Positions 18,279 to 54,913 of a stretch of DNA of 64,000 nt are shown here, piece by piece. Below the pieces are notes generated by a model. That model saw nothing but the letters and a program-made list of their open reading frames with translations, searched no databases and had not been told where the DNA came from. This DNA comes from an uncultured Chloroflexia bacterium (GTDB lineage Bacteria; Chloroflexota; Limnocylindria; Limnocylindrales; CSP1-4), in assembly GCA_963720755.1 (NCBI GenBank), contig CAVRGP010000011.1:672001-736000 (forward strand). Direction: 5' to 3'. The translations under genes and the position numbers were made by a program. Every line of letters begins with the position of its first letter. Within the stretch, counting starts at the first letter, position 1.

Positions 18279-18355
<77 letters not shown>

Positions 18356-50960: not shown

Positions 50961-51440
50961 TCAGGCGACCGCAGCTCCCTCCATGAACCCATCCTCGGCC
51001 TCGGCGTCGTCATCTGCGGTGCCGGGGTCGAAGGACGGCTCGACGATCGGCTCGGCGGCCGGCGACCCGACCGCGCCTGCTTGTGCGGCCAATGAGTCGG
51101 CCGCCTGCTGAGCCTCGTAGTCCTTCTTCCGCCGTCCGGAGAGCATCTCCACGTGCGAGGCCACGATCTCAGTCTTCCAGTGACGAGCGCCCTTGTCGTC
51201 ATCCCAGGACCGAGTCTGGAGTCGCCCCTCGATGGCGACCTGCTGACCCTTCCCGAGGTAGCGTCCGGCGATCTCGGCCAGGCGATCCCAGGCGACGACC
51301 GGGTGGTACTCGGCCTTTTCCTTGCCGCCTCCGACGAACTCGTTGCTTGCCACGGTGAACGTCGCGACGTTCTTGCCCGAGGCGAGACTGCGCAACTCCG
51401 GGTCGCGCGTAAGGCGCCCCGTGAGCAGGACCTTGTTCAC
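50961..51440 (-). CDS. ssb: Single-stranded DNA-binding protein
   Basis: MNKVLLTGRLTRDPELR and GKGQQVAIEGRLQTRSW motifs; RBS AAGGAG. Confidence 0.95.
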   Translation of the reverse strand: MNKVLLTGRLTRDPELRSLASGKNVATFTVASNEFVGGGKEKAEYHPVVAWDRLAEIAGRYLGKGQQVAIEGRLQTRSWDDDKGARHWKTEIVASHVEMLSGRRKKDYEAQQAADSLAAQAGAVGSPAAEPIVEPSFDPGTADDDAEAEDGFMEGAAVA

Positions 51441-51567: not shown

Positions 51568-53256
51568 TCAGCCCGGGTTGGAGGCGACGCCGCGCTCGCC
51601 TGGTGGCGTCGGTGGGCTCTCGGCCGCACGCGATCTCGTCCGCTTTCGGCGACTGGACTCGAGTTCGACCATCCCCCCCGCGCCATCTGCGAGGGTCCCG
51701 CTCGAGACGTTCGGGACCGGCGCCTTTGGCGATCGGCGGCCGACCATGGTCTTGGGCGGGTCGGTGATGGCCAGGACGGTCGGGTCGGGGCTGGGTGCCC
51801 GATCCGCGTACAGGTCGCAGAAGAGCACGACGAGTTCGGGATCGAACTGGGTGCCGGCGTGCTCGCGCAGCTCGGCGATCGCAGCGTCGTGGCCGATGGC
51901 GCGCTGGTACGGCCGGTCGCGAGTCATCGCATCGTAGGCATCGGCGATGGCCACGATCCTTGCGCCCAGCGGGATCTCGTTCGCACGGAGGCCGTAGGGA
52001 TAGCCATGTCCGGCGAATCGTTCGTGATGGTGGAGGATGATCGGGACCGCGTCGCGGAGGGCGGACGCATGCTCCAGGATCACCTGCCCGATCCGCGGAT
52101 GCTGGATGACGGTCCGCCATTCCGTCTGGGTGAGTGGCGCCGGCTTGTCAAGGATCTCCTCGGACACAGCGACCTTGCCGACATCGTGGAGGAGCGCGGC
52201 AAGGCGGATGCGGTCCACCTCCGCGTCGGGCAGCTGCAGGCGTCGGGCCATGTCCACCACGATCGAGGCGATCAAGGCGGATGGCTGGCCGCGATAGTGG
52301 GGGAGCGGTGCGATGAACGAGGTCAGCATGTCCGTGGCCGCATCGCGCGCCCGGCGACCGATGTCCGCGGCCCGGGCACGGCCGGCTTCGGAGATCGGCG
52401 CCCTCGGCACGCGAGCGTCCTCGTCGGGCTCTTCGAAGATATAGGTCTGATTGCGGCCCAGCGCCTTCGCCGAGTACATCGCGGCGTCCGCGTCGCGGAT
52501 GAGCGCGTCCAGGCGGACTTGCGAGCCTGTCCCACCGGCGATCCCGATCGAGATGGTGACGGACAGGTTCGGGTTGCCCTCGACCTTGAACTGGAGGCCC
52601 TCCACGATCGTCCGGAGTTTCTCGCTGAGGACTGCCCCATCCTCGACGTCGGTCTCGGTCAGGATGAGCATGAATTCCTCGCCGCCGTAGCGGCCGATCA
52701 TGTCACTCGCCCGCAGATTCTGGGACAGCGACTGAGCGACGCCCCGGAGGACGATGTCTCCGGCGGCATGACCATACGAGTCGTTGACGACCTTGAACAT
52801 GTCGATGTCCACGAACGCGACACACAACGGACGTCCGTATCGGGCCGCCCGCTCGACCTCGGAGAAGAGCTCGGCCAGCAATGCATGACGGTTCGGGATG
52901 CCGGTCAACCGGTCGACCGTGGCTCGGGTGTGGCTGTCCGCCAGCGATGCCGAGATCTCGTTGATGGCCCGGCCAAGGCGTGCCTCGAGTCCGCCGCCCG
53001 TGGTCGGCACCGTGACCGTGTAGTCGCCTCCGGCGATGCGTTCGGCCGCCCGGATCAGGCGGCCGTACCGGATACGACCGATCAGCCAGAAGATGACGGC
53101 ACTGACGCTGACCGCCATCGCGACGGCCATGACCGAGGCCGCGAACGGGCGATCGGCCGGAGCGACGAACGGCGCCGCAGCATCGGGCGACCCCACGAAG
53201 AGGATCCCCACCGCCGCCGGCACGGTGACGGCAAGAAGTGCGAGCAGTCGTATCAC
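51568..53256 (-). CDS. Membrane HAMP-GGDEF-HD-GYP c-di-GMP enzyme
   Basis: Two TM segments, HAMP domain, RASD I-site plus GGEEF, HDVGK, HHHERFAGHGYP and IADAYDAM motifs. Confidence 0.93.
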   Translation of the reverse strand: MIRLLALLAVTVPAAVGILFVGSPDAAAPFVAPADRPFAASVMAVAMAVSVSAVIFWLIGRIRYGRLIRAAERIAGGDYTVTVPTTGGGLEARLGRAINEISASLADSHTRATVDRLTGIPNRHALLAELFSEVERAARYGRPLCVAFVDIDMFKVVNDSYGHAAGDIVLRGVAQSLSQNLRASDMIGRYGGEEFMLILTETDVEDGAVLSEKLRTIVEGLQFKVEGNPNLSVTISIGIAGGTGSQVRLDALIRDADAAMYSAKALGRNQTYIFEEPDEDARVPRAPISEAGRARAADIGRRARDAATDMLTSFIAPLPHYRGQPSALIASIVVDMARRLQLPDAEVDRIRLAALLHDVGKVAVSEEILDKPAPLTQTEWRTVIQHPRIGQVILEHASALRDAVPIILHHHERFAGHGYPYGLRANEIPLGARIVAIADAYDAMTRDRPYQRAIGHDAAIAELREHAGTQFDPELVVLFCDLYADRAPSPDPTVLAITDPPKTMVGRRSPKAPVPNVSSGTLADGAGGMVELESSRRKRTRSRAAESPPTPPGERGVASNPG

Positions 53257-53377
53257 CGCCTCAGGCTACGTGCCAACGGGCGCGTGGCGGACCGACCGGA
53301 CGTACCGCGGCGAGGCCTCCGGAAGTACGGTGGTGCCCGAACGTCCCACCGGCGGGCCGGTCGGGCAGGTGGCGTCC

Positions 53378-53386
53378 TGCTATACT
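53378..53386 (+). promoter_or_regulatory. Extended -10 promoter (TGcTATACT) for the pur leader
   Basis: TG-n-TATACT located about 220 nt upstream of purA. Confidence 0.65.
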
Positions 53387-53392
53387 CCCGCC

Positions 53393-53577
53393 GTCCTCGA
53401 ATCGTGCGGATACGACGCCGCGAACCAGGAGGTCAGCGATCGCGCTTTCATGGCGCATCGGCCGTCCCGTGAGGCGCCCGAGCGACCGATCGATGGCGAT
53501 CCGCCGATACGTCGGCGGCGCGACGCGGGAGAGGTCTATCCGGGTCCCGGGCCGATCGCCCAGGGGCCTTTTCGTTT
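53393..53577 (+). ncRNA. Structured RNA upstream of purA (attenuator/riboswitch-like leader or 6S-like sRNA)
   Basis: Nested stems, a UACG hairpin, the PyrR-like CGTCCCGTGAGGCG loop, and a terminal hairpin with U-tract. Confidence 0.55.
53542..53577 (+). terminator. Intrinsic terminator before purA
   Basis: GGGTCCCGGGC-CGATC-GCCCAGGGGCCT followed by TTTCGTTT. Confidence 0.65.
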
Positions 53578-53605
53578 GCCCGATCGCCAGCCGAGGGTCT
53601 CGCTG

Positions 53606-54913
53606 ATGCCGGCCACCGTCATCGTCGGGTTGCAGTGGGGCGACGAGGGCAAGGGCAAGACCACCGACTTCCTCGCCGAGCAGGTGAGCATGGTCGTCCG
53701 GTACCAGGGTGGCGACAACGCCGGTCACACCGTGGTCAGCGGGGACGAGGTCTTCAAGTTGCGGCTCACCCCATCCGGTGTGTTGTACCCGCACATCACG
53801 TCGGTGATCGGCAACGGGGTCGTCGTGAACCCGATCACCCTGATCGCCGAGCTGGACATGCTGACATCGCGAGGGATCGACGTCTCGCGGGTCAGGGTCA
53901 GCCGGAGCGCGCACGTGATCATGCCGTACCACGTCGCGCTCGACCAGGCGAACGAGGCCCGACTTGGCGGCGCCAAGGTGGGTACCACCGGGCGGGGCAT
54001 CGGCCCGACCTACGGTGACCGGGCCTGGCGGATCGGTTTGCGCATGGAGGACCTCCTCGATGCCGAGCTCCTGCGAGAACGGATCGAGCGGGTCCTGATC
54101 GACAAGAACGTCCTGCTCGCGGCCGGCGGCTTACCGGCATTCGAGGTCGAACCACTGGTGGAGACCGCCCTGGGGTGGGGTGCGCGCCTGCATGCCCACC
54201 TCGACGATACGACCTGGCTCGTGCAGACCGCACTGGCCCGCGGCGAGCACGTCCTTCTCGAAGGTGCCCAGGGCACGCTCCTCGATATCGACCACGGCAG
54301 TTACCCGTTCGTCACGTCATCGAACCCGGTGGCGGGTGGAGCCTGCACCGGCGGCGGGATCGGTCCTCTCCAGGTCGACGAGGTCATCGGCGTGATGAAG
54401 GCCTATTCGACCCGGGTCGGATCCGGCCCGTACCCGACCGAGCTGACCGACGAGGTGGGCGCCGGCATCGCCGAACGCGGGCACGAATTCGGGACGGTGA
54501 CTGGCCGCCCGCGCCGGGTCGGCTGGTTCGATGCGGTGCCCCTGCGCTACGCGGTGGCGGTCAACAGCGCGAGCAGCATCATGCTCAACAAGCTGGACAT
54601 CCTGTCGGGTATCGAAACGATCCGGCTCTGTGTCGCCTACGAACTCGATGGCCAGCGGGTCGAGACCTGGCCCTCGAGCGGCGCTGCCCTGTCGCGGGCG
54701 ACGCCGATCTACGAGTTGTTCGAGGGATGGGACGAACCCATCCACGACATCCGGTCGGTGGCGGAGCTGCCTGACAACGCGCGCCGCTATGTGTCCGCGC
54801 TCGAGGAGCATGCGGGCGTACCCATCGTGCTCGTCTCGGTCGGCCCTGAGCGGACGCAGACCATCGACCGAGCCTGGCGACCGATACGAAACCGGTCGGC
54901 GCTTCAGGCATGA
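53606..54913 (+). CDS. purA: Adenylosuccinate synthetase
   Basis: GLQWGDEGKGK, GGDNAGHT, EGAQG, TRVGSGP and TGRPRRVGW motifs. Confidence 0.97.
   Translation: MPATVIVGLQWGDEGKGKTTDFLAEQVSMVVRYQGGDNAGHTVVSGDEVFKLRLTPSGVLYPHITSVIGNGVVVNPITLIAELDMLTSRGIDVSRVRVSRSAHVIMPYHVALDQANEARLGGAKVGTTGRGIGPTYGDRAWRIGLRMEDLLDAELLRERIERVLIDKNVLLAAGGLPAFEVEPLVETALGWGARLHAHLDDTTWLVQTALARGEHVLLEGAQGTLLDIDHGSYPFVTSSNPVAGGACTGGGIGPLQVDEVIGVMKAYSTRVGSGPYPTELTDEVGAGIAERGHEFGTVTGRPRRVGWFDAVPLRYAVAVNSASSIMLNKLDILSGIETIRLCVAYELDGQRVETWPSSGAALSRATPIYELFEGWDEPIHDIRSVAELPDNARRYVSALEEHAGVPIVLVSVGPERTQTIDRAWRPIRNRSALQA

Follow-up and report, generated by a model that had tools for sequence, protein, structure and literature searches.

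A Conserved Structured Leader RNA With a Putative PyrR-Type Loop Upstream of a purA-Led Purine Operon in Limnocylindria

Introduction

How is a whole de novo purine operon controlled when the space ahead of its first gene, purA, appears to encode an RNA whose best conserved loop resembles the binding site of PyrR, the regulator of pyrimidine operons? This question is raised by a locus of the Limnocylindria (Chloroflexota), abundant and uncultured bacteria of soil and freshwater. To our knowledge, the regulation of purine synthesis outside the model phyla is largely unknown. In Bacillus subtilis, a guanine riboswitch stands before the pur operon. We know of no earlier case in which PyrR controls purine genes, and a full-text search of the literature returned no report of such control, nor of a purA leader motif in Chloroflexota. 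The original prediction, made from the letters of one DNA stretch, took the region ahead of purA for an attenuator with a PyrR-type loop or, alternatively, for a 6S-like RNA. The answer is approached here from the parts of the leader, its conservation and fold in relatives, the relationship of its main hairpin to other presumed PyrR sites of the lineage, and the weight of the competing explanations.

The purA Operon and the Parts of Its Leader

The window (the whole 64-kb stretch of DNA that was analysed, to which all coordinates refer unless a contig is named) contains an intergenic space at 53257-53605, bounded by a divergent gene for a membrane protein with GGDEF and HD-GYP domains (51568-53256, minus strand), which adjoins the leader, and by purA, encoding adenylosuccinate synthetase (53606-54913, plus strand; Pfam PF00709, 565 bits). 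As the first gene of the operon, purA is followed by purD, purB, purC, purQ, purL and purF, as identified with Pfam, which together with the sequence bears out the proposal of a leader of purA-purD-purB-purC-purQ-purL-purF with its own promoter and terminator. The window also has an SSB gene (50961-51440, minus strand), and a tRNA at 18279-18352 on the plus strand is its sole Rfam match.

The structured leader RNA is located at 53378-53578 on the plus strand and comprises a promoter, a set of helices and an intrinsic terminator. The extended -10 promoter, TGCTATACT, was read directly at 53378-53386, and transcription would start at about 53392-53394. The form TG(C/G)TATACT is present in 23 of 23 same-genus loci; no conserved -35 was seen, nor was any conserved operator-like sequence found upstream of the leader promoter in the same-genus loci. 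The folded part, all of it on the plus strand, begins with P1 (UCCU/AGGA, 53394-97 with 53427-30), which encloses a variable hairpin, P1a (53406-10 with 53417-21, within the 53394-53430 span of P1). A long-range helix, obtained with RNAalifold on the larger of the two alignments described below (A2), has its 5' strand, GGUCAGCGAUCGCGC, at 53431-53445 and its 3' strand, GCGGGAG..GUCUAUCC, at 53525-53541; it encloses P2 and P3 and closes a junction. The P2 hairpin (53452-53487), with the PyrR-type apex, is made of a lower stem (GGCGC/GCG-CC, 53452-56 with 53482-87), a middle stem (UCGG/CCGA, 53458-61 with 53478-81) and an upper stem (CGUC/GGCG) with the hexaloop CCGUGA at 53467-53472, while P3 (CCGCCG/CGGCGG, about 53501-53519) is a variable and optional hairpin. 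The intrinsic terminator, with its stem at 53542-53569 and a U-run to 53577, directly abuts the long-range helix, and 28 nt separate the U-run from the purA ATG at 53606. The features that had been read from the letters, namely the promoter, CGTC-CCGTGA-GGCG at 53463-53476, the CCGCCGA-TACG-TCGGCGG hairpin, the terminator at 53542-53577 and the ATG 28 nt further on, are all in place.

Conservation and Distribution

The lone sequence and the comparison with relatives give opposite answers on whether the structure is due to chance. The minimum free energy of the window leader is no better than that of dinucleotide shuffles (z +0.39 on the plus strand, +0.55 on the minus strand), and a simple consensus scan for promoters and terminators flagged neither the promoter nor the terminator of the leader. 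A search with Rfam 15 at gathering scores across the window gave no match to the leader, and nothing relevant was found at E<=10 in 53200-53700, nor by Rfam in the pyrR leader of the genome and in divergent purA leaders; none of the known classes envisaged for the region at the outset (PyrR, 6S, purine, ZTP, ykkC/PRPP) has a family that matches. Comparison with relatives, on the other hand, leads to the conclusion that a genuine structured RNA, conserved and absent from Rfam 15, is encoded here.

By DNA search, the stretch from the -10 (about position 120 of the query, window 53376) to the T-run (about 53578) is kept in 22 of 24 same-genus genomes, and in the sister family f2, characterized by small genomes, the coding part of purA alone was matched (14 of 16 genomes). 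A pattern built from invariant columns matched at least 119 stretches in species-representative genomes. Among the pattern matches listed, the leader is present in 114 of 119, the other five being fortuitous matches, located in other taxa or within coding sequence, and purA lies downstream in 106 of 119; the 13 listed matches lacking purA are made up of these five, three cut contigs and five short flanks. Without exception the leader stands immediately ahead of purA, in the same orientation, even where the gene on its other side differs. Between terminator and purA, 9 of 23 same-genus loci carry a non-conserved insert of 150-250 nt, and the others have a few tens of bases.

More distant members were sought with a covariance model built from A2, and every full-length model match examined has purA downstream. 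The model found the leader in 39 of 44 genomes of the family to which the window belongs (f1), one copy each, and in 0 of 6, 1 of 49, 2 of 49 and 0 of 1 genomes of the families f2, f3, f4 and f5, respectively. When the regions upstream of purA were read directly, the leader was present in 1 of 27 loci of f4 (three of these loci being from genomes flagged as unpublished) and in none of the 24 loci of f3 and the seven of f2. Moreover, the genus g4, though missed by the model, has the leader in all three of its loci, and the sole usable locus of the genus g6 is without it. The leader is a motif of one Limnocylindria family, where it occurs in nearly all genera sampled, and of one genome elsewhere (G170, belonging to f4); apart from G170, three sister families are without it. 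The G170 leader stops 14 nt short of purA, and the identity of this purA to that of the window is 63-69%, against about 50% for other f4 genomes; since the G170 purA is of the f1 type, leader and gene may have moved together by horizontal transfer.

Two side observations concern the relatives. In f3, purA appears leaderless at 24 of 24 loci, with a TAGCAT-like -10 about 7 nt before a GTG start. In one relative of the window genome, a second copy of the leader (G002:C319:4011-4264, 82% identity) exists beside the copy before purA; it could reflect a bin of mixed strains or a genuine duplication.

Covariation and Fold

The fold was assessed on two alignments. A2 is a MAFFT alignment of 109 leaders, left from 118 non-identical ones after setting aside six partial sequences and three cut short in end-finding. 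In this alignment 89.4% of the cells are paired, a share that falls to 38-50% when the partners are slid; both-sided changes occur in 17 pairs, and the covariation score was reached by none of 500 shuffles. A3, consisting of 35 rows aligned to the covariance model, four of them partial or spurious, in a fitting that leans towards the model, has both-sided changes in 34 of its 47 pairs (144 cells against 50.5 expected from shuffles), and every helix has compensatory changes. The conservation and covariation of relatives' purA leaders, to which the original prediction had looked, are present in both alignments. When 30 family-level leaders were aligned by MAFFT alone, independently of the model, RNAalifold returned eight pairs only, mainly in the upper stem of P2.

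Taken helix by helix, pair 15/73 of P1 occurs in A2 as UA 68 times and as CG 19 times, and both-sided changes affect four of four P1 pairs and five of five P1a pairs in A3. P2 is 97% paired in A2, where pair 109/126 is found as GC, GU, AU and UG, and seven of its 13 pairs change on both sides in A3. P3 is missing from seven of the 109 rows of A2, and five of its six pairs change on both sides in A3, as do nine of ten pairs of the terminator stem, whose hairpin has a mean energy of -17.7 kcal/mol. The long-range helix is about 89% paired in A2 and shows no covariation there; its 5' strand is invariant in the main group, so that A2 speaks neither for nor against it. In A3, three of its five pairs change on both sides, and GUCUAYCC, in its 3' strand, is nearly invariant across the family. 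Furthermore, G-U pairs are frequent in A2 (113/122 is UG in 82 sequences and 84/190 is GU in 79), and these would be A-C on the other strand, which fixes the RNA to the plus strand. No linker separates P1 from the long-range helix or the latter from the terminator, and nothing in the fold prevents P2, the long-range helix and the terminator from forming together; the linkers of the junction are short and poorly conserved.

The alignments also revise parts of the pairing scheme that had been drawn from the window by itself. The proposed basal stem, CGGATA..GAC with GTCTATCCG, is not conserved, and its 5' half forms the local P1a in relatives; the GATCGC/GCGATC stem is likewise given up, its 3' partner being variable or absent while the 5' side is invariant. 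For the ATCGG/CCGAT stem the pairing within P2 is supported and the register is shifted, to UCGG at 53458-61 with CCGA at 53478-81. Mutual information on A2 was set aside as a source of pairs, being dominated by the split into subgroups, with a signal at 94/138 that lacked supporting neighbours. A leader peptide was also rejected: the main group does not keep the UUG...UGA reading frame of the divergent genera.

The P2 Apex and PyrR

The apex of P2 is CGUC-[CCGUGA]-GGCG, with a U-G wobble under the closing C-G pair. The loop is CCGUGA in 88 of the 109 leaders, CCGAGA in eight, CAGUGA in five, CGGUGA in two, and CAGAGA and CCGCGA in one each; it fits C-N-G-N-G-A in 105 of them, varying solely at the two N positions, and is flanked by (U/C)C..GG in 96. 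Across 11 genera, this loop is the most conserved part. In one review (PMC7430163), the PyrR consensus is given as ARUCCAGAGAGGYU, to the core of which the P2 apex fits, the lower stem and the purine-rich bulge are called crucial for PyrR binding, and RNA binding by the Bacillus protein is described as favoured by UMP/UTP and opposed by GMP. P2 is without the canonical CCUUUAA...GAAGG lower stem and purine-rich bulge that the family's own pyrR leaders display, and has single-base bulges only, which agrees with the initial suspicion that the flanking CUUUAA/AAGG is missing. The Rfam family of PyrR sites, RF00515, has no match to the leader at E<=10, nor any in the whole genome; since the pyrR and carA leaders of the genome go undetected by it as well, this negative carries little weight.

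The genome, for which pyrR paralogs had been considered, was found to hold one pyrR (L151:1477-2040; NF003549, 250.7 bits against a cut-off of 138), which is the sole PyrR among the four of nine PF00156 matches that were scanned with NCBIfam. Its leader (L151:1425-1476, G000:C13) contains the two hairpins GGCC[CCGUGA]GGCC and GGCC[CAGUGA]GGCC, abutting the Shine-Dalgarno sequence, an arrangement that by analogy suggests translational autoregulation of the mycobacterial type. The same region matches the Actinomyces-1 RNA (RF02928) weakly and below threshold (E 0.31). Ahead of carA (G000:C15:216350-216500), a -10 (TGCTACTCT), two tandem CUGUGA hairpins, a Shine-Dalgarno sequence and a 22-codon ORF precede a CarA-like frame, and this leader has the look of a PyrR operator, perhaps with an upstream ORF. 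In relatives, CNGNGA-GG loops are present in 24 of 29 usable pyrR leaders, CCGUGA being the commonest, and several of these leaders have the full canonical form CCUUUAACGA-CCGGUC[...]GGCCGG-GAAGGAGG. A PyrR-type loop in P2, as originally predicted, is supported by the loop counts, by the one pyrR gene and by the same hexaloops before pyrR and carA; judged by its sequence, the P2 apex is the same object as the presumed PyrR sites of the lineage before these two genes. A genome-wide search for further PyrR-type hairpins gave chance-level counts and no clear leader site besides those of purA, pyrR and carA. PyrR matches were obtained in 101 of 101 genomes of the class that were searched, four of them flagged as unpublished, with strong matches listed for about 97; PyrR is also present in families without the leader, and there is therefore no co-occurrence signal.

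Some members of the motif have a different apex. In the three g4 genomes and in G170, the leader is complete from the promoter through P1, the 5' block, the stem of P2, P3 and GUCUAYCC to the terminator, but the apex of P2 differs: it reads GGUC-N-(G/C)AUGA-ACC in g4, and G170 has a loop of 8 nt. Since the core persists in these genomes without the PyrR-type loop, it probably has a function independent of that loop. In the g4 loci (L259, L260 and L262), the longer P2 loop ends in (G/C)AUGA next to ACCGAG, and the UGAUGA-like sequence recalls, by analogy, kink-turn or box C motifs.

Alternative Pairings, Termination and Transcripts

Three conserved alternative pairings (86-93/101-107, 77-85/130-135 and 113-119/179-185) show no covariation and none of them touches the terminator; the first is lost in the divergent genera, as read from A3. 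Mutually exclusive pairings among the invariant blocks would explain why these blocks are invariant, and their conservation suggests, from the sequences, a switch. A search of the alignments for pairings to the terminator arm brought up no conserved antiterminator. The candidate with the best conservation pairs GGGA (53527-30) with UCCC in that arm; it was rejected for want of covariation and of any energy advantage, the 3' block together with the 5' arm of the terminator folding at -7.6 kcal/mol, against -7.7 for shuffles and a mean of -17.7 for the terminator hairpins. Both 7-mer pairings that had been thought to disrupt the terminator are indeed found in the window; they are window-specific and fall in the non-conserved terminator loop. 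A PyrR attenuator working by alternative pairings, as first proposed, is thus disfavoured by the lack of a conserved antiterminator.

In two metatranscriptome studies, contigs of relatives bridge the leader and purA (corresponding to 53417-53651 and 53417-53659); the data are small shares of three runs in the form of contigs, which carry no ends, levels or strand and may include DNA carry-over.

Possible Modes of Action

The explanation placed first, with a confidence that falls a little short of even, is that the leader is a new cis-regulatory RNA of the purA-led purine operon, the P2 apex probably recruiting PyrR. The strong extended -10 promoter would start a transcript of about 185 nt, predicted to fold into P1 with P1a, the long-range helix closing the junction with P2 and the optional P3, and then the terminator. 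There is no promoter room before purA (28 nt in the window, 14 nt in G170), and expression of the operon would consequently pass through the terminator, possibly by read-through alone. The P2 apex being a PyrR-type loop, the most likely effector is the single PyrR of the genome, which by binding P2 would alter how often transcription terminates or reads through, and would thereby make purine synthesis depend on the pyrimidine/purine ratio. However, because P2, the long-range helix and the terminator can form simultaneously, no route from P2 binding to termination is evident. The junction core probably has a second, PyrR-independent function, for instance metabolite sensing. A fuller version of this reading, in which the leader is a two-input switch with PyrR recruited to set purine against pyrimidine synthesis through its sensing of UMP and GMP and with the junction core as a new riboswitch class, is possible but rather doubtful as a whole. 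With the PyrR attenuators and translational operators (RF00515, Bacillus pyr) the purA leader shares the (U/C)C-[CNGNGA]-GG apex, a downstream terminator and the presence of pyrR in the genome. It differs from them in standing before a purine rather than a pyrimidine operon, in lacking the lower stem and bulge as well as an antiterminator overlapping the binding loop, and in having its hairpin as one part of a far larger conserved fold, with some members of the motif lacking the loop.

A new metabolite-binding riboswitch, in which the junction (the long-range helix, P2 and P3, with GUCUAYCC and the G-rich blocks) binds a ligand of the purine pathway and sets read-through, is an unlikely explanation, though one to be taken seriously; the P2 hexaloop would then be structural, and its PyrR likeness a coincidence or a later addition. 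A complex covarying fold followed by a terminator before a biosynthetic operon is in keeping with it, as are the core blocks kept in g4 and G170 in spite of the absent PyrR-type loop, the several mutually exclusive pairings that the invariant stretches allow, as in a switch, the seeming confinement of control to the RNA, given that no operator-like sequence lies upstream, and the failure of any known family to match. However, no conserved alternative pairing links an aptamer strand to the terminator, the junction linkers are short and poorly conserved, and P3 is dispensable. In addition, chance is a poor explanation for a P2 loop whose variation is confined to the N positions of the PyrR motif and whose identical counterparts precede pyrR and carA in the same genomes. 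The leaders with purine riboswitches also combine a three-helix junction with a terminator before de novo purine genes, but the purA leader resembles neither the purine class nor the ZTP, ykkC/PRPP or other classes of Rfam, whether compared by sequence or by model, and a loop-loop contact of the purine-riboswitch type is excluded by P3 being optional.

Lower in probability, and best called improbable, is a stable trans-acting sRNA of about 185 nt ending at the terminator, which might for example sequester PyrR while purA is served by constitutive leak-through. Riboswitch-linked sRNAs that sequester an RNA-binding regulator exist (EutX/Rli55). The helices that abut without unpaired linkers and all form together, giving a closed and compact fold, the lack of an antiterminator, the retention of the RNA despite long inserts before purA in 9 of 23 same-genus loci and a hairpin of protein-binding type would suit such a molecule. 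Against it stand the strict position of the RNA upstream of purA and in the same orientation, the lack of promoter room between terminator and purA at most loci, the poor sponge that a single PyrR-type hairpin would make when PyrR's own targets carry two and, weakly, the metatranscriptome contigs that bridge into purA. Least probable by far is the originally considered 6S-like RNA, binding RNA polymerase as in the purD motif of Epsilonproteobacteria, which the purA leader resembles in length (about 180-190 nt) and in lying beside a purine gene. The length of about 185 nt, the strong promoter and the place before a purine gene would fit, and the slot is formally open, no RF00013 match having been detected elsewhere in this genome or among 101 genomes belonging to the class. 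Nevertheless, RF00013 has no match to the leader even at E<=10, and the branched fold does not have the shape of a 6S RNA, a rod with a central bubble. Unlike a housekeeping 6S, the RNA is also limited to a single family, with three sister families lacking it ahead of purA.

Whichever of these explanations applies, the leader is a covariation-supported motif, new to Rfam 15, that heads a whole de novo purine operon. If, as in the preferred reading, PyrR binds it, this would be the first known PyrR control of purine genes and a direct molecular route for balancing purines and pyrimidines; if the core binds a metabolite, it would represent a new riboswitch class.

A Repeated Insert Near purA and pyrR

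The inserts of 150-250 nt in the gap between terminator and purA (L013, L015, L017-L022 and L024) are repeated sequences with an inverted repeat, GAGCGAGCGCAC...GTGCGTGAGCG. In the window's own genome the insert was not found, a search giving five pattern matches, which is chance level. It looks, from its sequence, like a REP- or MITE-like element, and a similar GAGCGAGCGCAC...GTGCGTGAGCG insert is located upstream of pyrR in L164 and L165.
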